This document shows positions 3,619 to 34,790 of a stretch of 34,790 nucleotides of DNA, piece after piece (position 1 is the stretch's first letter; every line of letters starts with the position of its first letter). Both the position numbers and the translations under genes were made by a program. Below the pieces are notes generated by a model. It saw only the letters and a list, made by a program, of their open reading frames with translations, did not search any database and had not been told where the DNA came from. Source of the stretch: a virus (taxonomy: Duplodnaviria; Heunggongvirae; Uroviricota; Caudoviricetes); the IMG/VR virus record IMGVR_UViG_2585427727_000020. One strand, written 5' to 3'.

Positions 3619-4033
3619 GCGTTATCGCACTCCACAGATCATCAAAAGAAATCATTACCGGTCCGTCACGACGCCAGAGAGTGATACTGTTACCCAGTTC
3701 ATTAATCCCGGTGCGGCGGATATCCAGATCAATACGGGACACCACGCCGTCATCAATCATCCATTGCAGGCATTCGCGGATATACCCCCTTACCGTCTGC
3801 ACCAGCTGATTGGTCAGTTTGCTGCGCTGAAGCAGCCACAGTCGGGAGCCGTAACGGTCATTCTGTACCGCAGGCCAGGTATCCCCCCACCATCCCATCG
3901 GGACGTCGGCATTGTCATCAGGCTCCGCCCGCCGCCAGGTAAACAGGGAAATCACCACGGCGCGGGTCAGCGGATCCAGCGGTGCGCTGGCGCAGGTGCG
4001 TTTACCGTTCACCGTCAGCCACAGTTCCATCAT
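3605..4033 (-). CDS. Mu gp46-like baseplate protein
   Basis: 142-aa ORF overlapping both neighbours in the baseplate operon; conserved position between the spike and baseplate J genes. Confidence 0.6.
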   Translation of the reverse strand: MMELWLTVNGKRTCASAPLDPLTRAVVISLFTWRRAEPDDNADVPMGWWGDTWPAVQNDRYGSRLWLLQRSKLTNQLVQTVRGYIRECLQWMIDDGVVSRIDLDIRRTGINELGNSITLWRRDGPVMISFDDLWSAITHGGQ

Positions 4034-4578
4034 GCCTCCATCGCTTTATCAGGTTTGTCGGTGTTACTGCCCTGACCGTTCTCTCTGTGACGATGCCCGT
4101 TATAGGCAAGCCGCATCGCTGACATGGTGGTGCCGCCGGAGTCGCACAGGTCTTTCACCTGTCCGGTCACTTCAAGGTCCATTTCAAAACGTGCTTTAGG
4201 TGAATTGCGAAACGTGATCGTTTTACCTGCACCGTCCACCACGATCCCCTCCCGGGTCAGCGTCACGGACTGCCCCTGATCGTCATAGACAGCCACCTCA
4301 CCCGTCTGCAGCCCTTTCAGGCGGTAGCGCCGGTCCGACACCGTAACAACCACCGCATGAGAACGGTCGCCATCCGGAAACAACACCACCGCTTCCGCAC
4401 CGCTGTTTGCCCTTGCGGTAAAACCGTAGGGTTCAAGATGTTCAACCCCGGCTTTGGGTTCACCGGCAATCAGGGACACATCCACGGTCTGACATTTCGT
4501 GGCGGCACTGATGCTTTTCACCACCGCCCGCCCAATCAGGCCGAGGAGTTGTCGCTGTATGGTTTCAATCGCCTTCAT
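4030..4578 (-). CDS. Baseplate assembly/spike protein (Mu gp45 / gpV-like)
   Basis: 182-aa ORF with start overlapping the upstream stop; beta-rich N-terminal domain and synteny with the hub and gp46-like genes. Confidence 0.6.
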   Translation of the reverse strand: MKAIETIQRQLLGLIGRAVVKSISAATKCQTVDVSLIAGEPKAGVEHLEPYGFTARANSGAEAVVLFPDGDRSHAVVVTVSDRRYRLKGLQTGEVAVYDDQGQSVTLTREGIVVDGAGKTITFRNSPKARFEMDLEVTGQVKDLCDSGGTTMSAMRLAYNGHRHRENGQGSNTDKPDKAMEA

Positions 4579-5657
4579 CAGAACGGGTCCTCCTGTACTC
4601 TGGCTTTTTTCTTTTTCCGCGCGCCGGGGGCTTCGGGTTCAGGCAGATAAGCATCAGGTGGGCCGACACGGATTTCCGTCAGGGTGCCATTCTGGTCCTG
4701 AGTAAACGTGACTTCCGAGACAAGCAGTTCGGTATTGTCGAAACCACAGACCGGATCGAAGACAATCACCCGCTGGTTGGGCTGCCACAGCGTACCGTTA
4801 CCCTGTCGCCAGCCCTGCACCACATAGGTGGTTTCATCCGTCCGCGCCGCCCGTTGCCGGGCTTCAAAGTCAGCACGGGCAATACAGCCTGCCCCCGTGG
4901 CCTGCCCTGTCTGCCTGATATACATCGGACGGTAACGGGCAATAAATGCGTCCTCTGTGCGGGCCCGCAGCGCGGTGGTGGTGGCCTCACCGAAATCATC
5001 GTCGTTTCCGGCACGCTGCCCCGCCACCTGGTAAACTGAAAACCGCTCCCGGATACTCTTCTCCGTATCACAGGAAAGGATGTTTTCCCCAAGTACCAGC
5101 GCGGTATGTGCCCGCGTTGAGCCAATACCGCCAATCACCAGCCTGCCGTGCGGGTCGTCATAAGCCAGCGCCTGCTGCTGACCGAGTATTTTGTTGATTA
5201 CCTCAATCACCGTTTCACCGTGATCAGGCTGGACATCAGGAATAACACCCGACGGCGCACCGCTGTTCACCACCTCAATGCCGAAAGGCGCAGCAAGCGC
5301 CTGCGCAATCTGTACCAGCGATCGTCCGTTAAACTGTGTCGGTTCGGCTGCACAGTCAATCAGGTCAGCGGTCAGACTGCGTCCGGCAATACCGGTGCTG
5401 ACCGAACGGGCATCGTAACGAACGGGCGTCGCCTCCACCCAGCCGGTGATCACCAGCTCATCACCAATCAGCACCTCCACTTTTGAACCGTTTTTAATGC
5501 GCGGCTGAAGCGTGGTGATACCCTCATCTCCCGGCCACTGGCGGGTGATCTCCACACTGAAATCCCGCGCCAGTCGTTCAACACCGGCACCGATGCGCAC
5601 CGATGTCCAGCCATTCCACTCCCGGCCATTTACCCGTAGCGTGACGTTATCGTTCAT
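4578..5657 (-). CDS. Mu gp44-like baseplate hub protein
   Basis: 359-aa ORF between the DNA-circularisation-like gene and the spike gene in a Mu-type tail module; ends with a lysine-rich tail (ARKKKKARVQ). Confidence 0.6.
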   Translation of the reverse strand: MNDNVTLRVNGREWNGWTSVRIGAGVERLARDFSVEITRQWPGDEGITTLQPRIKNGSKVEVLIGDELVITGWVEATPVRYDARSVSTGIAGRSLTADLIDCAAEPTQFNGRSLVQIAQALAAPFGIEVVNSGAPSGVIPDVQPDHGETVIEVINKILGQQQALAYDDPHGRLVIGGIGSTRAHTALVLGENILSCDTEKSIRERFSVYQVAGQRAGNDDDFGEATTTALRARTEDAFIARYRPMYIRQTGQATGAGCIARADFEARQRAARTDETTYVVQGWRQGNGTLWQPNQRVIVFDPVCGFDNTELLVSEVTFTQDQNGTLTEIRVGPPDAYLPEPEAPGARKKKKARVQEDPF

Positions 5658-6982
5658 TGTACTGGCACCTTCAGAGGGATCACCGGCACAAAGCCGGGAT
5701 GCGTAATGGCATTACGCCGGATAATGTCCGCGTCACGCGCCGCGTTATCAAACCAGGTCGCCGCCAGCACCAGCGCGGGTAAAACCTCATCCGGCGTGCG
5801 CTGAATGATCCGTGCAGACTGTTCAAGGCGCGTGTTGATATCCGCATTCAGATCTGCTTTCACCCGGCGCAGCGCCAGAAACAGCGCATCACTGGTTGTA
5901 CGGGACAACTCCTTATCAATTGCCGTATTCAGTGTGTCGCGAATGTCAGTCAGTTCTTCCCACGTCGGCAGATCAACCGTGTTTTTCACCGCCGGTGCAT
6001 TGTTCAGTGCCGGATGCGTGACGGAAGGCCAGCCGGTGCTCTGCGCAGCTGTTGTTGCCTGCCCCACTGCGGCATTCTGCATCACCGCGGAAGTTGTTGG
6101 CGCAGGCAATCGGGTGACGGCATACGCCGCTTCGCTGATTGCGGTCGTACGAAGGGTGCTGGCAACCACGTTACGCTGCTGCGTCGCCGTGGCGGTGGTT
6201 TTACTGTCCGTTTTCCAGACGCCGCGCGGTTGCAGATCGCTGCCGAGGCTGACACCGGAAAGCGTTTTGATCATGGTGACCAGGTCGCTGGCGTTACCAT
6301 AAAGGCGTTTCCCGGTACGCCACATTTTCTGCACCTGCTCAACGAAATTTTTGCCTGACGATGGCGGCGGCAGAAGTACCGAGATATCCCCCTGCAACAG
6401 CCTGGCGGCATCCGATACGGCAGAATCCACCACTTTCATCGCATCAGAAATATACCCAAGCATTGTGCCGGCATTACCGACGACGTCGTTCTGCACAAAA
6501 TCTGCCACGCCATCGATACTGAAACCACTGAAACTGTCACTGATGCAGTCATCCAGTGCAGAACAGGATGACATCAGCGTCTGCGCCGTCGCCGCACCTG
6601 ATGTGGGGTAAGAGAGTTCTCCCGCTTCGACAAACTTCAGGTCAAAGCGGACAATACGCCCTTCACTTTTCGATGTGCTGACCCGAACTTCCCCGTCAAC
6701 ACAGACTTTCAGCTCACCATATGTCGGGTGGACAAGCGTGCCGGGACCGGGTTTATTCAGCGCTTCAATCAGGCGATCGCGCTGGTCAAAGCAGTCATCT
6801 CCCACCACATAAGCTGTGATGGACGGGCGGAAAGTGACTTTTCCCAGATCTTCGGTATAGGGTTTGTCGCGGTTCGGATATTCGTGTGTTTCCACACGAC
6901 GGCCGGTTCCCGCACTTTCTTCTTCAACCTTAAACGGCACACCTCGAAATGACGCATCCTGAAGCCTGTCTTTCCACGTCAT
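5654..6982 (-). CDS. Mu gp43-like DNA circularisation protein (tail module)
   Basis: About 440-aa ORF immediately after the tape-measure region; N-terminus (TWKDRLQDASFRGVPF...HEYPNRD) is typical of this family. The ATG at 6980-6982 is preferred over the ORF-track GTG at 6988. Confidence 0.7.
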   Translation of the reverse strand: MTWKDRLQDASFRGVPFKVEEESAGTGRRVETHEYPNRDKPYTEDLGKVTFRPSITAYVVGDDCFDQRDRLIEALNKPGPGTLVHPTYGELKVCVDGEVRVSTSKSEGRIVRFDLKFVEAGELSYPTSGAATAQTLMSSCSALDDCISDSFSGFSIDGVADFVQNDVVGNAGTMLGYISDAMKVVDSAVSDAARLLQGDISVLLPPPSSGKNFVEQVQKMWRTGKRLYGNASDLVTMIKTLSGVSLGSDLQPRGVWKTDSKTTATATQQRNVVASTLRTTAISEAAYAVTRLPAPTTSAVMQNAAVGQATTAAQSTGWPSVTHPALNNAPAVKNTVDLPTWEELTDIRDTLNTAIDKELSRTTSDALFLALRRVKADLNADINTRLEQSARIIQRTPDEVLPALVLAATWFDNAARDADIIRRNAITHPGFVPVIPLKVPVQ

Positions 6983-13941: not shown

Positions 13942-15147
13942 TTACGCCACTGCAATCTTCAGCAGTTTGATGGCCTGCGAATCGACCAGCATGCCGCCGG
14001 TGCGTTTGGTGGTATAAAAACCGACAAACGGTTTATTGGTGTACGGGTCACGCAGAATGCGGGTGCCGATACGGTCAACGATGGTGTAACCCCGTTTGAA
14101 GTTACCAAATGCAATGGCTTTCGCATCAGCGGCGATATCCGGCATCTGTTCGTTTTCAGCGATACCGTAACCCGCCAGAGAGGACGGCTGCCCCAGCTCC
14201 AGCCCCGGACGCCACAGATAGTTACCCTCGCTGTCTTTCAGCAGACGGATGGCAAACAGGCTGTTGTTGTTCATCATGAACTTCGCACCGGTGCGGTGTG
14301 CCTTACGCAGTGTGTAAATAAGTTTGATAATGGCGTCTGCGGTCACCGCAGTCGCTTCGCCGGATACAATATGCTGAAGTTTGCCGAACGCCCGGACCTT
14401 ATCGGTTTCATCAGTGGATTCATACGCCAGGAACCCTTTCGGCTTCTTGGTGCCATCGCCTGAGGTAAAGGCAATTTCTTCCTGTTCGGCAAATTCGGTT
14501 GCCAGCTCGCTGTTGATCCAGGCCTCCACGTTGAAGAAGGCATCGTCCAGCATTTTCTGGGTGGCCTGCGGGTTGCCGTAGATTTCCCCCATGAGAGGTT
14601 CAATCAGCTCCAGTTTGGAGGTGGCAGTCTGGGATCGCGTATCCGTTTCCCCCACCCATCCGGAAGCCGTGCCGCCCAGATTCACCAGTTTTTTGTAGTC
14701 GGAACCGCCAACGGTGATCACCGTGGCTTCCTAGCGCATCACCACTTCATCTTTCAGCAGGGTGAGAATGTTGCGATCCAGCGCTTCCGGCACGGCATAG
14801 CCACCGTCTTCATCGGTGCCCACCTGCAATGCCTTACGCTCCAGATCGCGCAGACCATCTTCACGGCCTTTACGCAGGAAGCCCACAAACGCTTCTTTAT
14901 GCTCGGTGGCCAGTTTATTTTGCGCACCACCTGCCGGACGTTTCAGCTCAAGCAGCTCTTTTTCAAGATCGCTTTTGAGGTTTTCCAGCTCGCTGAGTTT
15001 CCCGTTCAGGGTTTCCACCTGCCCGGCAAGTTTGCCTTTTTCCTGCTCAATCGCATCCACGCGCTTGTCGTTCTTTGCTTTGAAGTCGTCAAACTTCTGC
15101 TGCAGCTCCTGCGCGACCTGTTCGACATCTTTAATATCTACCGCCAT
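13942..15147 (-). pseudogene. HK97-fold major capsid protein with N-terminal coiled-coil domain, interrupted by an in-frame TAG
   Basis: ORFs 14731-15147 (N-terminal coiled-coil, 138 aa) and 13942-14721 (capsid body) are in the same frame, separated only by a TAG at 14731-14733 and three sense codons (...EVVMR * EATVITVGGSDY...). Joined length is about 400 aa. Confidence 0.65.
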
Positions 15148-21465: not shown

Positions 21466-21588
21466 AAGTTGTGTGGCGAAGTAACCACTCATAACAGATT
21501 ACAATGGTTTCTGCGGACCGCGTGAGTGATTTTATTTAATTTTTAATGTAAATTTCAGTTCCTTTTGAGTGATTACATGGAGTACATA

Positions 21589-22404
21589 ATGAAAGTGTTC
21601 ATAAGTTGGTCTGGGCAAAGAAGTCAAGCTGTTGCAGAACTTATTAGCGACTGGCTGAAGTGTGTTATCCAAGCTTCGCAGCCATGGATTTCAACCAGAG
21701 ATATTGATCGTGGCGCTATATGGTTCTCTGAAATTAATGATAAATTAAAAGATGTATCTGTCGGCATTGTATGTTTGACACAAGAAAATAAAAATAAACC
21801 ATGGATTTTGTTTGAAACAGGAGCACTAGCAAAAGGACTTTCAACAAATAAAGTTTGTACATTCTTGATTGACTTAAAACCAGAAGATTTAAAAGATCCA
21901 CTTGCTCAATTCAATCACACAACGCCAAATAAAGAGAGTGTTTGGGAATTAGTAAGGACAATAAACAATTGTCTTGTCGATAAATCTTTAGATGACCGTA
22001 TTCTAAAGCAAGTTTTTAATACATACTGGGAGCAATTTGAAAACAATTTTAAACGAGCTTTAGATCAATACCCTCCAACTGAAGAAGTAAAACCACGTAC
22101 TGAACAAGATCTTTTATCTGAAATATTACAAAACACTCGTTCATTAAATCAAAGGATTAGAGTTCTTGAACGTGATGCTACTATCAACTCCATAAATAGC
22201 CATATGAATTTAACTCCTGTAGAACAGAAGGATGTTTGGTATCTACAAAAACAGATAGATGAAATTATAAAGAATGGATTGCTTGACGAGGATGAAATAA
22301 TATCATTCTTAGACAAATATGACATTCCTGAAAAAATGATTAGGAACCAAATAAAATACACATTAAACCAACGATTATCTGAAAGTAATAAAAAAAAGAA
22401 ATAA
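21589..22404 (+). CDS. TIR-like domain protein (N-terminal TIR-like fold, C-terminal helical domain); low-GC moron between Q and the holin
   Basis: N-terminus has the TIR-like signature order: VFISWSG strand, helix, DIDRG...W...I turn, VGIVCLT strand, then WILFETG with a Glu. Very AT-rich; opposite strand to all flanking genes. Start at ATG 21589 preceded by GGAG; alternatives at 21565 and 21577. Confidence 0.55.
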   Translation: MKVFISWSGQRSQAVAELISDWLKCVIQASQPWISTRDIDRGAIWFSEINDKLKDVSVGIVCLTQENKNKPWILFETGALAKGLSTNKVCTFLIDLKPEDLKDPLAQFNHTTPNKESVWELVRTINNCLVDKSLDDRILKQVFNTYWEQFENNFKRALDQYPPTEEVKPRTEQDLLSEILQNTRSLNQRIRVLERDATINSINSHMNLTPVEQKDVWYLQKQIDEIIKNGLLDEDEIISFLDKYDIPEKMIRNQIKYTLNQRLSESNKKKK

Positions 22405-22409
22405 CCTTC

Positions 22410-22446
22410 CCCCGTAAACATAAAGTTTACGGGGTTATTTTTTATT
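22410..22446 (+). terminator. Rho-independent terminator of the TIR-like gene
   Basis: Perfect 10-bp stem CCCCGTAAAC / GTTTACGGGG with 5-nt loop, followed by TTATTTTTTATT, starting 6 nt after the stop. Confidence 0.7.
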
Positions 22447-22810
22447 ATAACTCCATATCTAAATGAATATCGAGAGTAGAAAGGCAACCATCAATGAATC
22501 CCTCTGCTAACAATATTTCTATACGGATTAATTTCTCATCCTTTCCTTGTATTTTGGCAATCTTCCGCTTTGAAAACCCGTACAAATAATGCGCAACCAG
22601 TAAAGAATGCTCATAAGGTTTTCTTTTTTTTAGTTGCTCCAAGCAACTTTCAATAATTAGCGCATCATTATCTGAACAAGCTTGGCGTGCCTTACTGGTA
22701 TAGGGAAGAAGTCCCTTAAACCCAGCAGCTATAGGCGAATAGTCCACTCCTGAGCTATCACTAGCTGCCCATGCCCCCCAACGTTCAAGGATGATCTGAA
22801 TATCACGCAT
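22445..22810 (-). CDS. Q-type late antiterminator (QuuD-like)
   Basis: MRDIQIILERWGAWAA...AAGFKGLLPYTSK... resembles E. coli prophage antiterminator Q proteins; sits upstream of the lysis cassette. Start taken at the internal Met. Confidence 0.7.
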   Translation of the reverse strand: MRDIQIILERWGAWAASDSSGVDYSPIAAGFKGLLPYTSKARQACSDNDALIIESCLEQLKKRKPYEHSLLVAHYLYGFSKRKIAKIQGKDEKLIRIEILLAEGFIDGCLSTLDIHLDMEL

Positions 22811-22827
22811 CAAATTTCTCCACAAAA

Positions 22828-23823
22828 TCAGGCCAGCACGCCTATTTCCAGCGCACGATCGATAAAACGAAATATCAGCTCCAGCTGGGAGCCATACTTC
22901 TCTTCAAATGCCACGGTATCCGCATGCAGCTCGTCGTGATGCTTTCTGCACAAAGGCAACACAAAGAGGTCATGCGCTTTTGTACCCATTCCCCCCTGAC
23001 CGTGGCCTATCAGGTGGTGGGGATCATCAGCAGGTTTTCCACAACATGCGCACGGCTGCGTCTTAACCCAGCGCGTGTACTTTTCATTAACCCAGCGGCG
23101 ACGTTTTGGGCGTAACATAAAAGACTCCGGCGACTCCGGATCCACTTTCAGCGCCAGCATCTTTTTCGCCTTATCCTGGATGATGCTGGTGGCAGGAACC
23201 GAAGGCACAAGGTCACTTTCCCGGGTGACAGACGGCACAACAGGCTTCGGTAATCTCAGTGCCTTACGGGCTGCACTTTCCGGTAAGGCATCCGCCAGGT
23301 CATTACGAATCAGCCACCAGCACAGTTCCGGCATTGTCACAACGTGACTATAATCAAAACCGAGATCCCGACGCACAACAGACAACACCCAGCGGGCACA
23401 GTTATCCGTTGCCATTGATTCCAGCCGTTCCGTGAACTGATCGCGCAGCTGGTTATCACAGTGCCAGCACAGACGGATTGCGCCCGGAGCGTGTCGCATT
23501 GTGGTAATGTTCTCGCTGTGCCAGTCGGAATGAGGCCACTGACAGCCCTTTTCACGAAGTAACCAGCTTTCAAGACATTCCACGCCACCAGCACGACGGA
23601 TCACTGCCTCATTGCGGAACACGGCCCGAACGGCAGGATCATCCACCAGCGGTTGTGATGCCGCCGGAACGGCACCACTGGCGAAAGATGAATAACATTC
23701 CGGCTCAGGCTCCAGCAGGACACGCCCCTGCATAAACAGGGGCATCAGCTCTGAACCTGGCCTGAACAATACGATCCCCATACGCGGGGCAATTTCAGGA
23801 GTCAGTAGTGCTCTCACGGTCAC
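22828..23823 (-). CDS. DUF968-like prophage protein with C-terminal HNH-like motif
   Basis: 331-aa ORF; C-terminus CACCGKPADDPHHLIGHGQGGMGTKAHDLFVLPLCRKHHDELH is a Cys/His nuclease-like motif common in nin-region proteins of enterobacterial prophages. Confidence 0.6.
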   Translation of the reverse strand: MTVRALLTPEIAPRMGIVLFRPGSELMPLFMQGRVLLEPEPECYSSFASGAVPAASQPLVDDPAVRAVFRNEAVIRRAGGVECLESWLLREKGCQWPHSDWHSENITTMRHAPGAIRLCWHCDNQLRDQFTERLESMATDNCARWVLSVVRRDLGFDYSHVVTMPELCWWLIRNDLADALPESAARKALRLPKPVVPSVTRESDLVPSVPATSIIQDKAKKMLALKVDPESPESFMLRPKRRRWVNEKYTRWVKTQPCACCGKPADDPHHLIGHGQGGMGTKAHDLFVLPLCRKHHDELHADTVAFEEKYGSQLELIFRFIDRALEIGVLA

Positions 23824-23824
23824 C

Positions 23825-24622
23825 TCAATGAACGGTATCGAGCAGCTTTAACAGCTCAGGGAATCGGGATTCGAAGAAATGCGGCTGCGTCTCGCGCGGA
23901 TTTGCGGGACTGGTGATATTCTTGCCGAACATGCAGCCTTTCGCTGTCAGCGACCAGAATTTTTTGATGTTGTTAATCGCGGTACGGCTGTATCGTTCGC
24001 GCTGCTCGACGATCCCCAGCGTCACCATCTGGTGATATGCCTGATTAGCTGTCAGGCGGATACCATACTGCTTCAGCAGTGCACTCAGTGACAGCGTGGG
24101 GCGGCTTGAGCCATCAGGCGCGTCAGCAGGAGCATCAATGGCATAGCGCGGTGCCAGATTCGGTAAGCCAACAGCCTCCTGGAGTTTCTGACAGGCACCA
24201 AGCACTGAAGAGTTAGACAGGTTTAATTCCCGGCGCATAAAGTCCAGCAGAATCACACCAGCCTGCATCTTGTCAGCAGCCTGTCCGGATAATTTTTCCG
24301 GTGCGCTGGTTACCATATCGAAAGTACGGATCACCTTCAGATGGAATGACGGGCTGATCCACATTGCATAGGCATACACCAGTTCTTTGCAGACATACGT
24401 CCCCTGGTTATTTCCGCCACGAATAACGTTAACTGGCTCTATATTGACTGAGTTGCAAATCTGTAACTCGCTTATTAAACGTTCAGTTTGCTCATTGCGG
24501 AGCCAGAATGCAGGCTTATGCTTATCCAGAGAACCGGCAGCCCTGTGCAGATCGTTCAGGCTGTAACGCCCATAAGCATCACGACGAACTTCAATACCAT
24601 CAATTACCATCAGATTATTCAT
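23825..24622 (-). CDS. KilA-N domain protein
   Basis: N-terminus (MVIDGIEVRRDAYGRYSLNDLHRAAG...KPAFWLRNEQTERLI) has the KilA-N signature. Confidence 0.7.
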   Translation of the reverse strand: MNNLMVIDGIEVRRDAYGRYSLNDLHRAAGSLDKHKPAFWLRNEQTERLISELQICNSVNIEPVNVIRGGNNQGTYVCKELVYAYAMWISPSFHLKVIRTFDMVTSAPEKLSGQAADKMQAGVILLDFMRRELNLSNSSVLGACQKLQEAVGLPNLAPRYAIDAPADAPDGSSRPTLSLSALLKQYGIRLTANQAYHQMVTLGIVEQRERYSRTAINNIKKFWSLTAKGCMFGKNITSPANPRETQPHFFESRFPELLKLLDTVH

Positions 24623-24641: not shown

Positions 24642-25031
24642 TCAGGCGGCTGCCCCCGCCGGTTTCTCGTACTTACTGATAGTGATCTCGACCTTCCCTT
24701 CCGGGATAACCGGTCCCCACTCCACCAACATTCTTTTCACTTGGCTGTCGTCTTCCCACACACCCGCGTGGGTCAGGGCGTCAAACAGCGCCTTGTTATA
24801 GTTGTCCAGATCGCGGATCCGGTTATCCGGAGGAAACAACACGATCTCCACTGAAGCAGGTGCCGACGTTGGTTTCGGCAGACGACGTAACTGCTCAACT
24901 ATTGCTGCGCACGCTGCGCTCTGGAATTTTCGCCCCGCCGCGCTTATCAGGCTCTTACCAGCAAACGCCCCTTTGTTGGGGTGTCGCCAGTACGTGTTCA
25001 CGCTGGGCGGAAAAGGCAGGATCAGCTTCAT
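24642..25031 (-). CDS. rusA: RusA-type Holliday junction resolvase
   Basis: 129-aa ORF (MKLILPFPPSVNTYWRH...DLDNYNKALFDALTHAGVWEDDSQV) with the conserved RusA motifs including catalytic Asp residues. Confidence 0.85.
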   Translation of the reverse strand: MKLILPFPPSVNTYWRHPNKGAFAGKSLISAAGRKFQSAACAAIVEQLRRLPKPTSAPASVEIVLFPPDNRIRDLDNYNKALFDALTHAGVWEDDSQVKRMLVEWGPVIPEGKVEITISKYEKPAGAAA

Positions 25032-25354
25032 ACTTTCAGGCCCCTCTCATGTAACCAGTGGGTTGCACGCAGCCTTGCGTTTTCCTCACCGGCAAGCAGT
25101 GCGCGGATAATCCCGACCGCCTCGCTGTCGTCGTCCTTCACCGCGGTATGAAGCGTTATCCCCCGGGCCACGCCACGCTTTATCGTGATGACGCCTTTTT
25201 TCTCCAGTGCGCGAAGATGCTCTACCGCTGCATTCACTGAACGGTATCCCAGCATGGTTGCCACCTCCTGATTGGTTGGCGGAAAGCCACGCTCTTTCTG
25301 ATAAGAAATCAGCATATCCAGCACCTGCTGCTGGCATTGAGTTAACGTCGTCAT
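25028..25354 (-). CDS. LexA N-terminal DNA-binding-domain paralog lacking the S24 peptidase domain
   Basis: MTTLTQCQQQVLDMLISYQKERGFPPTNQEVATMLGYRSVNAAVEHLRALEKKGVITIKRGVARGI aligns residue by residue with the LexA winged-helix domain, including the recognition helix (SVNAAVEHL vs SPNAAEEHL). Only about 45 further residues follow; no Ser/Lys peptidase domain. Confidence 0.7.
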   Translation of the reverse strand: MTTLTQCQQQVLDMLISYQKERGFPPTNQEVATMLGYRSVNAAVEHLRALEKKGVITIKRGVARGITLHTAVKDDDSEAVGIIRALLAGEENARLRATHWLHERGLKV

Positions 25355-25842
25355 TACGCCCCCACGTAATTCCCTGACAGATACCACTCATCACTCGATA
25401 CAGCGCGCTTGCTGCTTTTCCGTAAACACAGCTCACGACGCGCCAGAAAATTGTTTCGTTCTGGCTGGGAGTGGCTTTCACGGAATGCCGCCATCCACAC
25501 GGTTGCAGCACGACGGTATAAGCCCCTGGACTCCAGTTCTTCAGCCTGGCGGGTCAGGCACAAAATCACCCGTGGATCGTTAGTGCCGACATAGAAATTG
25601 CGCACAGGTCTGGTTTCTCGAACTGGTTGTGGTTCCGGTTCCTGCGCTCTCTCAGTCAGGCGCGGGAAATGTCTGCGTGTATCTCCTTCACAACGGTGAG
25701 CCACACGCCCACTCTGACGTAACTTGCTTGCAGACTGCAGAACGCGCTGCCGTGAGTAACCTGCAAAAGCATCCGCAATGTCTCCGGAAGTACACCCCGG
25801 ATGGGCTTCAATGAATTTCTGAACGTCATTTAACAGACTCAT
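25354..25842 (-). CDS. PerC-like transcriptional regulator (putative)
   Basis: Contains a GLYRRAATVWM segment recalling the PerC/Pch family motif; stop overlaps the start of the LexA-like gene. Assignment from memory only. Confidence 0.4.
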   Translation of the reverse strand: MSLLNDVQKFIEAHPGCTSGDIADAFAGYSRQRVLQSASKLRQSGRVAHRCEGDTRRHFPRLTERAQEPEPQPVRETRPVRNFYVGTNDPRVILCLTRQAEELESRGLYRRAATVWMAAFRESHSQPERNNFLARRELCLRKSSKRAVSSDEWYLSGNYVGA

Positions 25843-25844
25843 GA

Positions 25845-26786
25845 TCACCCTCTGAATCCTGTCGGGATCTGGCTGTAGTCCACGTTGTCGTAACTGGCTT
25901 TGAAGTACGGGTCCTCGCGTTTTTCGGTGTACGTGCTGACGGACGGCGATAAGCGCAGGGAAAGCTCATCCCATTTTTCCCGCAGCTTCGACGGGCTGAG
26001 CACGTTACGGCACCAGAACGGATCGCGGCTGACGCGGCTGTACATCTCGCAGATTTGTTTGTGAGTACGCCCATCCTGTACACACATCAGGCGAATTTCG
26101 TTTGCCCAGGCTGTCCAGTTCGGTTCTTTGGGACGAACCACCTCGCCGTCACATTCGGCAGCCTGCTCGTACAGGGCGATGATTTTTTTCCAGAGCCACT
26201 GTGCGCAGGTCAAATCATCCTTCGTCCCCCACTGGCGCTTTTTAGGGCTGAATACAACCGCATCAGGATGGCGAGTTAAAAAATCCTGTTCATCCGTCTG
26301 CGTGTCCGGTTGCGAAGCGTCCGGACGAGAAGGTTTTTTATCTGACGGATCATGTTTTGATTTTACTGACGGATCCCCGCCAGATTCTGACGGGTGAAAA
26401 CCCGCTTTTTTGCCAGATTTCGACGCATCAAATTTTGACGGGTCAGATTTTGATGCGTCAGATTTTGACGGGTCAGAATCTGACAGTTGAGAAAATGCCG
26501 CTGCCTGAAGCTTCGCAACGTTAAGCTGATAAACATTCGACGCATTGCGGTTACCCTGGCGACGCGCCTTACGCGTTAACCAGCCTTCTGCTTCCAGCCG
26601 TGCGATAGCCGTTCTGACGGTACTCATCCCCGCGCCAATTTGACGGGCAATGGTTTCAATTGATGGCCAGCACACACCTTCGTCATTACTGAAATCAGCC
26701 AGGCGGGCCATAATTGCCACGCTGGATAACTTCATGCCTGATGCAGCGCAACCATCCCATACATAACCGGTTAATTTAGTGCTCAT
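25845..26786 (-). CDS. Replication initiator (lambda O-like: N-terminal winged-helix domain, repeat-encoded linker)
   Basis: N-terminal HTH (ETIARQIGAGMSTVRTAIARLEAEGWL), central low-complexity SKSDxSK repeats encoded by DNA iterons, C-terminal domain. Occupies the replication-gene position downstream of cro. Confidence 0.6.
   Translation of the reverse strand: MSTKLTGYVWDGCAASGMKLSSVAIMARLADFSNDEGVCWPSIETIARQIGAGMSTVRTAIARLEAEGWLTRKARRQGNRNASNVYQLNVAKLQAAAFSQLSDSDPSKSDASKSDPSKFDASKSGKKAGFHPSESGGDPSVKSKHDPSDKKPSRPDASQPDTQTDEQDFLTRHPDAVVFSPKKRQWGTKDDLTCAQWLWKKIIALYEQAAECDGEVVRPKEPNWTAWANEIRLMCVQDGRTHKQICEMYSRVSRDPFWCRNVLSPSKLREKWDELSLRLSPSVSTYTEKREDPYFKASYDNVDYSQIPTGFRG
26340..26490. repeat. 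Iteron-like direct repeats inside the replication initiator gene (candidate origin)
   Basis: Several copies of TTTTGACGGGTCAGA / TTTTGATGCGTCAGA-like units; analogous to ori-lambda iterons inside gene O. Confidence 0.5.
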
Positions 26787-28022: not shown

Positions 28023-28697
28023 ATGAAAACAATCCATGACATCCGGCGGTCTAACGCCAGAAAACTGAGAGATGGTGTTGGCGGGAATTCTTCCTTTGCC
28101 ACTATGATTGATCGCGAGCCAACCCAGACCAGCAGGTTTATGGGAGATGGTGCTACTAAAAATATCGGTGACAACATGGCACGACACATCGAAAAATGTT
28201 TCGACCTGCCTGTCGGATGGCTCGATCAAGAACACCAGACAACGAACATCACAAAAAAACCTGATGTTTCAATCACTAATAAACAAATCACATTAGTCCC
28301 TGTCATATCATGGGTACAGGCCGGAGCATGGAAAGAAGTTGGATATTCTGAGGTTGATTTGAGCACAGCAGAAACGTATCCCTGCCCTGTACCCTGTGGG
28401 GAAATGACTTATATCTTGCGGGTGATAGGTGATTCAATGATTGATGAGTACCGCCCGGGAGACATGATTTTTGTCGATCCTGAAGTACCTGCCTGCCACG
28501 GTGACGACGTTATTGCATTGATGCACGATACAGGTGAAACCACCTTCAAAAGGTTGATAGAAGATGGGACACAGCGTTATCTCAAAGCGTTAAACCCAAA
28601 CTGGCCTGAGCCTTACATTAAGATCAACGGTAATTGCTCTATAATTGGAACTGTGATTTTCTCAGGAAAACCAAGAAGATACAAAATCAAAGCCTAA
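28023..28697 (+). CDS. CI-type prophage repressor (N-terminal HTH, C-terminal S24 LexA-like peptidase domain)
   Basis: C-terminal domain has the S24 Ser/Lys dyad context (RVIGDSMIDEYRPGDMIFVD ... TFKRL); divergent from cro across the operator region. Confidence 0.85.
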   Translation: MKTIHDIRRSNARKLRDGVGGNSSFATMIDREPTQTSRFMGDGATKNIGDNMARHIEKCFDLPVGWLDQEHQTTNITKKPDVSITNKQITLVPVISWVQAGAWKEVGYSEVDLSTAETYPCPVPCGEMTYILRVIGDSMIDEYRPGDMIFVDPEVPACHGDDVIALMHDTGETTFKRLIEDGTQRYLKALNPNWPEPYIKINGNCSIIGTVIFSGKPRRYKIKA

Positions 28698-33358: not shown

Positions 33359-33378
33359 TACTGTATATGCATACAGAA
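33359..33378. promoter_or_regulatory. LexA box (SOS box) inside a promoter upstream of the int-distal two-gene cassette
   Basis: TACTGTATATGCATACAGAA matches the E. coli LexA consensus TACTGTATATATATACAGTA at 16/20 with both CTGT and ACAG arms and exact 8-nt spacing. It overlaps a possible TTGAAT-N17-CAGAAT promoter; a second promoter (TTGAAA-N16-AATAAT) lies just downstream; the ATG is at 33455. Confidence 0.6.
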
Positions 33379-33454
33379 TTTAAAGAAAATTAAGCTCTTG
33401 AAAGTGCTTGGTTTTATGGAATAATGAAACCAAATAGTTTACAGGAGTTTTCTT

Positions 33455-34351
33455 ATGCAGTTGTATGCCTTACGTGTGTTAATGAGACCGCGCGATCCAG
33501 ACCTCTTTTCGAAAGGAGCTGTTCAGAAAGATATCTCTCATTTTGAAAATGCTATGGTTGTCGCTGCAAAAAATTTACACATGACGTCATCAACACCTTC
33601 CGTTCATAAGAAAACTAGTTACACCCTGAAATTGAGCATAAAACCTACTGATGGTGTTATGGCTGGAGTCATATCAAAGCTGCAAAAGATTAAAGGACAT
33701 GATAAAGACTTTCGAGAGTACGATGTAGACAACTATCCACCTATCGTATGGATTTGGGACAAAGTAGAGCAGGTGTTACTGGTTGAGAGGAAAACCGCTG
33801 TTTTCAAGGATGCGCAACAAGTTGCTAAAGCATTCGAAGATCTAGCCAATAACGACTATTTGGCTCAGTTAGGACTTAGAATATTTATAGAGCCTTGTCT
33901 TGAAATGGAAGATTTTTGGTCAGAATACCATAGGCTTCAATTTATCGACAAAGTCAGCTTTACGCTGATTACTCCGAATATCTTCGGAAGCAGTAAGCAA
34001 GCGTTAACCAATGATTTACGGAAGCTTGAAAAAGATACCAATGCAAATACTGTGACCACTATTTTTGAAAACAAAGATGGCAATTTGAAACTCAAAGGTT
34101 CTCATTGGGCTGAGACTCTTGTTGACTGGGTCAAAGATGGTGGCGGGTCATGGTTGATTAAAGGACGTAAGACACTCAAGTCAAAATCTACTACGGTATC
34201 CAGTAATCAGACAGCCAAAATCGTGCTGATCGAAGGTGAGATATCAGAAATTGAACTTGATGGCTACTCAGCAAATGATATTAAAGAGATCATAGCATTA
34301 CATCAAAACAGGTATACGTTCAAAAATGCAAAATCTAACTGTCTGGATTAA
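33455..34351 (+). CDS. Low-GC hypothetical protein, first gene of the SOS-box cassette
   Basis: 298-aa ORF with ATG preceded by GGAG; AT-rich unlike the prophage backbone; no family recognised, no HEXXH or other catalytic motif seen. Confidence 0.6.
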   Translation: MQLYALRVLMRPRDPDLFSKGAVQKDISHFENAMVVAAKNLHMTSSTPSVHKKTSYTLKLSIKPTDGVMAGVISKLQKIKGHDKDFREYDVDNYPPIVWIWDKVEQVLLVERKTAVFKDAQQVAKAFEDLANNDYLAQLGLRIFIEPCLEMEDFWSEYHRLQFIDKVSFTLITPNIFGSSKQALTNDLRKLEKDTNANTVTTIFENKDGNLKLKGSHWAETLVDWVKDGGGSWLIKGRKTLKSKSTTVSSNQTAKIVLIEGEISEIELDGYSANDIKEIIALHQNRYTFKNAKSNCLD

Positions 34352-34790
34352 AGCTATAGCTACCTTCTTTTTGTGCTTAGCATTAGCATCGACTGATAAA
34401 ACCATTTATACCTTACTTGAGCAGGCTTCTGCTGGAGTAATAGGTTCAATACTTGGAGGTATTGCCGCAGGTATCTCCGTTATCTTCGGAATTTTGGCTG
34501 TCATTAATAAGGGCGAGAAAAGCACAGACTTTACGGACTATTTAGATAGTTTAGAATTAGATTTGAAATTACTGGTCATGTGTCTGGCAGTAACAATCTT
34601 CCTTCCCTATTTACGTAATTATGACATACCACTAGTAAATTATCCTCAGCACGAATTTATCCCTTCTAAAGGCAAGCTATTTACTGCTTTAGAACTTTTT
34701 GCTATCGTGCTATCTCTTAACCTCATTGCAGAAGTGATTAGCTGCATGATTTTAGTGGTTAAAAAAAGTTTCAAAATTGAATCAAAGTGA
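34326..34790 (+). CDS. Small polytopic membrane protein (about 4 TM helices, glycine-zipper segment), second gene of the cassette
   Basis: 154-aa ORF overlapping the upstream gene by 26 nt; hydrophobic helices include GSILGGIAAGISVIFGILAV. The stop codon is the last 3 nt of the window. Confidence 0.6.
   Translation: MQNLTVWIKAIATFFLCLALASTDKTIYTLLEQASAGVIGSILGGIAAGISVIFGILAVINKGEKSTDFTDYLDSLELDLKLLVMCLAVTIFLPYLRNYDIPLVNYPQHEFIPSKGKLFTALELFAIVLSLNLIAEVISCMILVVKKSFKIESK

Follow-up and report, generated by a model that had tools for sequence, protein, structure and literature searches.

The window analysed here, the whole 34,790-nucleotide stretch of IMG/VR virus record IMGVR_UViG_2585427727_000020 (Caudoviricetes), is a prophage at the icd/e14 attachment site, with 99.96% identity to a prophage of Escherichia coli strain 1190. 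On its minus strand lies a gene for a small protein made of a LexA-type DNA-binding domain plus a helical hairpin at the C terminus, with no peptidase domain. From its sequence, a role of this protein as an uncleavable stand-in for LexA is plausible. Within the region of interest, adding 5027 to the coordinates of locus L001 gives those of the window, and the gene and its parts are arranged as follows.

25028..25354, minus strand: LexA-like gene, DNA-binding domain only, 108 amino acids plus stop (ATG 25354-25352, stop 25030-25028; PHROG 362; WP_000210156.1)
25148..25354, minus strand: winged helix-turn-helix, residues 1-69 (helices 6-22, 28-35 and 40-52, strands 56-58 and 66-68 in the AlphaFold2 model)
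25199..25240, minus strand: recognition-helix segment, residues 39-52, SVNAAVEHLRALEK, with S39, N41, A42 and E45 as in LexA and Val instead of Glu at position 44
25046..25132, minus strand: C-terminal helical hairpin, residues 75-103 (helices 75-88 and 93-103), conserved in the family, absent from LexA, with a putative role in dimerisation

Residues 2-66 of the protein match Pfam PF01726 (LexA_DNA_bind) with an E value of 3e-19 (69 bits against a cutoff of 23.7), and LexA sequences of the PDB align without gaps to residues 2-70 in a phmmer search (E 6e-16). Compared with residues 1-70 of E. coli LexA, 35 of 70 positions are identical (50%), again without gaps. The AlphaFold2 model of the 108 residues (predicted local distance difference test score, pLDDT, of 83) places a disordered linker at 70-75 between the winged helix and a confidently predicted hairpin (75-88 and 93-103); its winged-helix part superposes on DNA-bound LexA (3JSO) with a root-mean-square deviation of 1.0 Å at 50% identity. 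No match to Peptidase_S24 could be found in the protein, whose chain ends at residue 108, and its score of 70.5 against the NCBIfam lexA equivalog (TIGR00498) stays under the cutoff of 110.95. The PF01726 match, the superposition on 3JSO and the missing S24 domain bear out the first-pass annotation of this gene as a LexA DNA-binding-domain paralogue devoid of the peptidase domain. The same annotation had described a nearly residue-by-residue match to LexA, which is overstated given an identity of 50% and the valine that stands where LexA has E44. Its claim that the recognition helix is kept holds for S39, N41, A42 and E45, all present, and fails for E44.

We considered whether the motif 'LLAGEE', which resembles VAAGEP of LexA, is the relic of a cleavage site. 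This was ruled out because the motif is variable in relatives, where 'LAGE' at residues 87-90 becomes LAKE, LANE or LVGE, and lies within a predicted helix. Because the protein has neither an S24 peptidase domain nor a conserved cleavage site, activated RecA would be unable to trigger its self-cleavage; the RecA insensitivity that had been proposed for it thus follows from its architecture. Heterodimers with host LexA are unlikely, since LexA dimerises via the C-terminal domain that the phage protein lacks. Purifying selection on the gene is strong, with a ratio of nonsynonymous to synonymous polymorphism (pN/pS) of 0.07 across 67 alleles.

Searches with single proteins and with profiles recovered 116 full-length family members, down to 39% identity, from Escherichia, Salmonella, Citrobacter, Cronobacter, Klebsiella, Enterobacter and Atlantibacter, all of them with the C-terminal hairpin. 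The window protein matches PHROG 362 over its full length (E 1.2e-59), its residues 1-108 covering all 106 positions of the profile, and its C-terminal tail aligns with those of relatives at 39-52% identity. In helix 3, S39 occurs in 116/116 members, N41 in 114/116, A42 in 101/116 and an acidic residue at position 45 in 100/116. Among 15 representatives with less than 75% mutual identity, the helix-3 consensus SPNAAxEHLRALERKG equals LexA (SPNAAEEHLKALARKG) at positions 39, 41, 42 and 45; two other positions differ conservatively (R for K and E for A), with position 44 as the low-conservation exception. All family members share K53 as well as R64-G65 in the wing, and LexA R52 is replaced by a conservative Lys in the window protein. 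The DNA-contact residues of LexA were taken from secondary sources, which disagree on E44. A 2024 review of the crystal structure names S39, N41, A42 and E45 as the primary contacts, and all four are present in the window protein. Since the helix-3 contacts are kept in the consensus of the 15 divergent representatives, the retention of this recognition surface suggests a target common to all hosts, as the SOS box is. Besides the family proper, we noticed proteins with tandem LexA-type DNA-binding domains and no obvious peptidase domain (P0132, P0133, P0148, P0151, P0153, P0155, P0156 and others), which is another way to a 'dimer' within one chain.

Of 5,426 complete E. coli genomes, 2,681 gave a match to an 821-bp segment comprising the LexA-like gene and the PerC-like gene next to it. 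The segment also matched 50 phage records, among them SfII, SfIV, mEp460 and Shiga toxin (Stx) phages of the Stx2c and Stx2a types; tblastn with a distant family member retrieved 56 phage records, SfV orf42 among them. The window protein is identical to RefSeq WP_000210156.1 ('LexA family transcriptional regulator') and 96-97% identical to proteins of the SfII, SfIV, mEp460, cdtI and Stx2c phages. PHROG 362 carries the label 'transcriptional repressor', and a survey of Stx phages placed the protein in a phamily defined solely by pfam01726. The gene thus exists as described, is very widespread and has been annotated before, under homology-based names.

In the window the LexA-like gene stands in a gap-free gene run that begins with a replication gene, upstream of rusA and DUF968 in the nin region and before Q, as in the sampled PHROG 362 relatives apart from the exceptions given below.

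25845..26786, minus strand: O-like replication initiator (HTH_36; PHROG 391), first gene of the run
25354..25848, minus strand: yfdN, PerC-like, 164 amino acids, with a Pfam PerC match; its TAA stop and the LexA-like ATG overlap
24642..25031, minus strand: rusA, Holliday-junction resolvase gene, whose start overlaps the LexA-like stop (ATGA); conserved downstream neighbour of the family
23825..24622, minus strand: KilA-N gene, part of a co-inherited block (22445..24622)
22828..23823, minus strand: DUF968/HNH gene, part of the same block
22445..22825, minus strand: Q antiterminator, part of the same block
28023..28697, plus strand: ymfK, CI-like repressor with an S24 peptidase domain, the RecA-sensitive switch

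Start and stop codons overlap at the O-like/yfdN, yfdN/LexA-like and LexA-like/rusA junctions, and the other spacings do not exceed about 20 bp. We detected no promoter-like site beyond chance within the run, and neither a promoter nor an SOS box of its own directly upstream of the LexA-like gene in the window. As there is no internal promoter-like site and YmfK is of the S24 type, the LexA-like gene should be expressed only when YmfK has been lost, along with the early lytic genes.

The product of yfdN combines a weak MarR-like N-terminal part with a PerC/ANR-like C-terminal part (residues 98-154), the Pfam PerC match (PF06069) covering residues 100-154 (E 1.1e-9, 38.9 bits against a gathering score of 22.6). 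Translational coupling of this gene to the LexA-like gene had been proposed; the PerC match and the overlap of stop and start codons (TAATG) are real, but the pairing is not conserved. Most phages have a dam gene between the two, and the window junction corresponds to the precise loss of this dam cassette at the TAATG and ATGA boundaries (window 25352-25358 against 6324-6327 and 6975-6979 of locus L002), so that the coupling is a local accident. The direct junction occurs in 754 genomes, compared with about 2,250-2,680 that have the gene, and PerC is absent altogether from several other lineages. For these reasons we ruled out PerC as a conserved functional partner. Downstream, rusA comes next, either directly or with one small open reading frame (ORF) in between, in each lineage sampled apart from Klebsiella; further on, DUF968 is found wherever the locus is long enough (L008 ends at an unannotated cut gene). 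This downstream order is independent of the replication module, which can be the O-like Phg_2220_C, DUF1376 with lambda P, or DnaT with DnaC. The presence of the family beside three replication modules, including ones with lambda P or DnaC, rules out a helicase loader or second replication gene.

Several other features of the window deserve mention. Origin-like iterons (GTCAGAnnnTGAC palindromes with a 15-bp period) lie within the O-like gene at about 26340-26490, where they encode a repetitive SDxSKSD stretch. Q and the holin flank a TIR-TM defence-like gene (21565-22404, plus strand; PADLOC TIR-TM, E 1.9e-57; Pfam TIR_2), whose orientation is opposite to that of the lytic genes. The major capsid gene (13942-15147, minus strand) is split by an in-frame stop at 14731-14733, and is a PGAP pseudogene in strain 1190; the prophage may be defective because of this split.

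At the other end of the window, the first-pass annotation had pointed to a LexA box upstream of a cassette on the integrase side.

33359..33378, no strand assigned: near-consensus SOS box TACTGTATATGCATACAGAA, followed after 77 bp by a cassette of two genes (33455-34351 and 34326-34790)

This box does exist. Its core, CTGTATATGCATACAG at 33361-33376, is the sole CTGT-N8-ACAG in the window and reaches 22.1 bits with an SOS-box matrix built from E. coli sites. Being the sole LexA-type dyad in the window, it is also the only candidate phage-borne target there. The two genes behind it (298 and 154 amino acids) lie between intE and the attachment-site side and have no match in Pfam, PHROG or PADLOC. 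The best promoter-like site (33398-33425) comes shortly after the box.

Strong SOS boxes are frequent in related phages: inside cI, just after rusA, and after Q before a methylase. A consensus-quality box (for instance TACTGTATATAAAAACAGTA) lies inside the coding sequence of a cI-like S24 repressor in the gene tables of mEp460, Stx2a_1447 and L008 (10763-10782 in L002/L003, 836-855 in L008). In the IMG/VR loci a box occurs at -2.9 to -5.3 kb from the LexA-like gene in 24/80 cases, the distance pointing to the same cI-like placement. Another strong box is seen repeatedly at a DNA methylase gene after Q, either shortly upstream or at its 5' end (L002 1712, L003 1237, L011 8739), and a box at +3.9 to +6.1 kb in 25/80 IMG/VR loci matches this site. 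Its recurrence suggests that the methylase gene is a LexA-controlled moron. Finally, the box TACTGTATTTATGAACAGTG stands right after rusA in nine IMG/VR loci (L012-L091 set), at +764 bp from the LexA-like start, and a tenth locus has a box at +2113 bp. Phages with this box presumably have a gene other than KilA-N at that place. A search for a private operator, through inverted repeats around the gene in six loci and an unbiased count of 4-N8-4 dyads in the window, returned only the canonical SOS box.

The most interesting new context of the gene is found in relatives, where it belongs to operons that are headed by an SOS box and include dinI or recA. Four distant lineages, namely Klebsiella, Enterobacter, Salmonella and one represented by locus L180, have the LexA-like gene behind an SOS box of 20-27 bits, with dinI or a phage recA in the operon in some of them (L009/L010, L011, L092-L095 and L180 are the loci with a box upstream of the operon). 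The Klebsiella order is promoter and TACTGTTTATTTATACAGTA, dinI, a small ORF of PHROG 1813, the LexA-like gene, a 67-amino-acid ORF and DUF968, without rusA. In Enterobacter, where the immunity repressor has no S24 domain, a terminator and the promoter TTGCAA-17-AATAAT are followed by ACCTGTACATTCATACAGTA, PHROG 1813, the LexA-like gene, a 67-amino-acid ORF and rusA. The Salmonella operon runs from a terminator and TACTGTTTATATATACAGTG through PHROG 1813 and the LexA-like gene to rusA, that of L180 from a terminator and TACTGTTTTTATATCCAGTA through a recA homologue, a PHROG 1813-like ORF, the LexA-like gene and a 66-amino-acid ORF to rusA. An upstream terminator was detected in L009/L010, L011 and L180 and none in the Klebsiella loci. 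This arrangement behind SOS boxes, with DinI or RecA as neighbours, therefore ties the family to the SOS network through its regulation and its neighbours.

These operons have some further peculiarities. Family members encoded in them (P0139, P0172/P0287, P0278 and P0230; 130-135 amino acids) carry a predicted N-terminal extension of 25-30 residues with a loose S-A-G motif. The prophage RecA homologue of L180 (2957-4066, 369 amino acids) is directly behind the box, which scores 25.5 bits. The small PHROG 1813 protein always precedes the LexA-like gene in SOS-box operons (L092-L095 6670-6960; L009 5713-5961; L011 5724-5951; L180 4105-4338), with 47-56% identity between lineages. Its identification with the Gifsy antirepressor GftA was ruled out, as the two have no sequence similarity and share the slot alone; by its position, PHROG 1813 is a candidate for a new antirepressor family. 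In L009/L010, genes for an RNase A-like bacterial toxin and for CdiI-like immunity are inserted on the opposite strand of the nin region (3863-5232, minus strand), and the SOS box at 5560 falls in the region upstream of them.

The reading that we favour, if tentatively, is that of a RecA-insensitive dimeric protein that would bind LexA-type operators and be produced while LexA is being destroyed. The protein would be a small sequence-specific DNA binder derived from LexA, with a winged helix-turn-helix (residues 1-69), a short linker and the hairpin (75-103), the latter most likely replacing the LexA C-terminal domain as a dimerisation module. Loss of YmfK would lead to transcription of the operon, so that the LexA-like protein would be made at the time when host LexA is cleaved. 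Its dimers could then bind LexA-type dyads, CTGT-N8-ACAG or a close variant, and thereby repress LexA operators again, some or all of them, in the course of lytic growth, both on the host chromosome and at phage boxes such as 33359-33378. LexA-type operators are known to be repressed by fusions that link LexA's DNA-binding domain to unrelated dimerising domains, and this is why a DNA-binding domain plus any dimeriser is sufficient. Kim and Little are said to have found in 1992 that the isolated N-terminal fragment of LexA still binds operators, weakly and cooperatively. Neher and colleagues reportedly found in 2003 that the cleaved fragment is removed by ClpXP via its new C-terminus, an end that the LexA-like protein does not have. 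From the features described above we infer dimerisation, the operator sequence, a repressing and not an activating effect, and the physiological benefit.

A number of observations weigh against this reading. Position 44 is Glu in none of the 116 family members (V in 48, A in 21, T in 15, N in 12, L in 11 and F in 7), and a 2010 paper counts E44 among the LexA contact residues, together with S39, N41, A42 and E45. In the same match list, 14 of 22 long LexA-like proteins (at least 185 amino acids) have E44; these include every long protein with the NAAE/NSAE helix-3 signature, the other eight having different helices and several of them tandem DNA-binding domains. As position 44 is never Glu in the family, a specificity identical to that of LexA cannot be assumed from the sequence. 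Position 45 is non-acidic (L, I or T) in three of the four SOS-box lineages, and for this reason such members probably do not read CTGT as LexA does. The genomic distribution of SOS boxes points in the same direction. The integrase-side cassette with its box is present in 32 of the 5,426 genomes, compared with 2,681 for the gene, and a strong SOS box was found in 24/39 Q-anchored related loci with the gene and in 9/15 without it (Fisher p = 1). This comparison shows no enrichment of SOS boxes near the LexA-like gene, and 35/80 loci have no strong box within 10 kb. The pairing of the LexA-like gene with the integrase-side box, from which a rewiring of SOS control had been suggested, is thus a coincidence of this prophage. 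The literature yielded no functional or experimental study of the family, searches on yfdN, the LexA-like phage protein, Glu44 and Stx phages giving annotation tables only.

Part of this evidence could be accommodated by a phage-specific regulator of altered specificity, in which the LexA fold would act on a non-SOS dyad of the phage or the host, as repressor or activator, and leave the SOS regulon untouched. Residue 44 is replaced throughout the family and varies by subfamily, residue 45 varies in some members, SOS boxes are not enriched near the gene, and gp6 of phage GIL01 offers the precedent of a truncated LexA homologue that works on a different palindrome and activates a late promoter. 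However, no alternative 4-N8-4 dyad is prominent in the window, the shared module has neither an intergenic region nor an operator-like palindrome that accompanies the gene, and helix 3 otherwise keeps its LexA-like character across 40% divergence, which would be unusual with private operators. We consider this explanation, the main rival, unlikely, while deserving serious attention. Another reading, a transcriptional activator of a phage promoter that would bind beside the -35 element as GIL01 gp6 does, can invoke the same truncated homologue; it appears quite improbable to us, as the Q antiterminator already serves the late genes and no candidate site emerged from the inverted repeats of six loci or from the 4-N8-4 dyads of the window.

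The neighbourhood of the gene could also hint at an accessory factor of DNA metabolism, whose winged helix would bind DNA or a partner and assist RusA and DUF968/HNH in recombination, replication restart or DNA processing. Indeed, rusA and DUF968 lie downstream whatever the replication module (rusA not in Klebsiella), start and stop codons overlap, and one lineage has a phage recA just upstream. Yet a conserved gene order in the nin region can account for this synteny, the gene persists in Klebsiella prophages that have no rusA, and the residues shared with LexA are the base-reading ones of helix 3, arguing for sequence-specific recognition in the major groove; such a role is distinctly unlikely. 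The winged helix might alternatively bind a protein and have no DNA target, for example as an anti-repressor or as a modulator of RecA, LexA or another host protein. Winged helices such as that of RPA32 can be protein-interaction modules, and in four lineages the gene, paired with PHROG 1813, occupies the SOS-operon slot where Gifsy phages have dinI and an antirepressor. Nevertheless, the DNA-contact residues are conserved, the window prophage has a cleavable S24 repressor and hence no need of an antirepressor, and LexA dimerises through a domain that is absent here, making this the kind of explanation to which we give very little credit.

Extended to the whole family, the reading of the protein as a RecA-insensitive binder of LexA-type operators would make PHROG 362 a family of uncleavable LexA surrogates that switch the SOS regulon off again, or re-programme it, while RecA is still activated, the SOS-box operons closing a negative-feedback loop. 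We regard this extension as possible, if on the doubtful side. If it were true, about half of E. coli genomes would carry an uncleavable LexA surrogate, and the operons of Klebsiella, Enterobacter and Salmonella would provide a feedback loop that host LexA cannot give during DNA damage. Should LexA operators be bound, prophage induction would bring a RecA-resistant SOS repressor into many strains of E. coli, Shigella, Salmonella and Klebsiella, including those with Stx2c and some Stx2a phages. Under antibiotic or DNA-damage stress, this could affect mutagenesis, filamentation, the release of colicins and toxin, and LexA-controlled antirepressor prophages. Together with GIL01 gp6 there would then be two natural cases of a phage that has put LexA's DNA-binding domain to new use. 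If LexA operators are not bound, the gene would be an ordinary, already annotated member of the nin region.

The genetic organization of the SOS-box operons is reminiscent of the Gifsy phages, which have a LexA-controlled dinI-antirepressor operon in the nin region. Both sets of genes are preceded by an SOS box, a promoter and, except in Klebsiella where none was detected, a terminator. Gifsy-2 has a promoter and a dinI very similar to those of Klebsiella, and STM1021.1n is a homologue of the small ORF that comes after the LexA-like gene. In contrast, Gifsy phages have no LexA-like gene, gftA and STM1020 occupying the slots of PHROG 1813 and the LexA-like gene, and the window prophage has no such promoter, LexA box or dinI. 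A second comparison concerns yfdN and the PerC/Pch proteins, activators of LEE1 (LEE, locus of enterocyte effacement) encoded on a plasmid in enteropathogenic E. coli and on prophages in enterohaemorrhagic E. coli. The C-terminal 55 residues of the yfdN product match Pfam PerC, with a weak ANR match, whereas its additional N-terminal MarR-like part, its place in a prophage replication-nin operon and its occurrence in strains that need not carry LEE set it apart.

As for the LexA-like protein itself, PHROG 362 and SfV orf42 are the same family and in part the same protein, with no difference from it. Compared with E. coli LexA (3JSO, 1LEA), it keeps S39, N41, A42, E45, K53, R64 and G65, and differs in the absence of the S24 domain, of the Ala84-Gly85 site and of Ser119 and Lys156, in Val44, in the 35-residue helical hairpin that replaces the dimerisation domain, and in being phage-encoded with predicted expression in the lytic programme. 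Engineered fusions of LexA's DNA-binding domain to a dimeriser (the LEVI/LexRO optogenetic repressors and LexA two-hybrid systems) have the same layout of DNA-binding domain, short linker and dimerising module; unlike the phage protein, they are artificial and carry the authentic or the '408' recognition helix of LexA, and dimerisation of the phage hairpin is a prediction. The closest natural parallel, compared here by description, is gp6 of the Bacillus thuringiensis tectivirus GIL01, likewise a phage-encoded LexA DNA-binding domain without peptidase domain. It stems from the LexA of Gram-positive bacteria, has GaCACAn-nTGTGaC as its binding site, acts as an activator of the late promoter P3, and is described as a winged helix-turn-helix only, with no C-terminal hairpin reported, whereas the present family resides in enterobacterial lambdoid prophages that have Q for late control.

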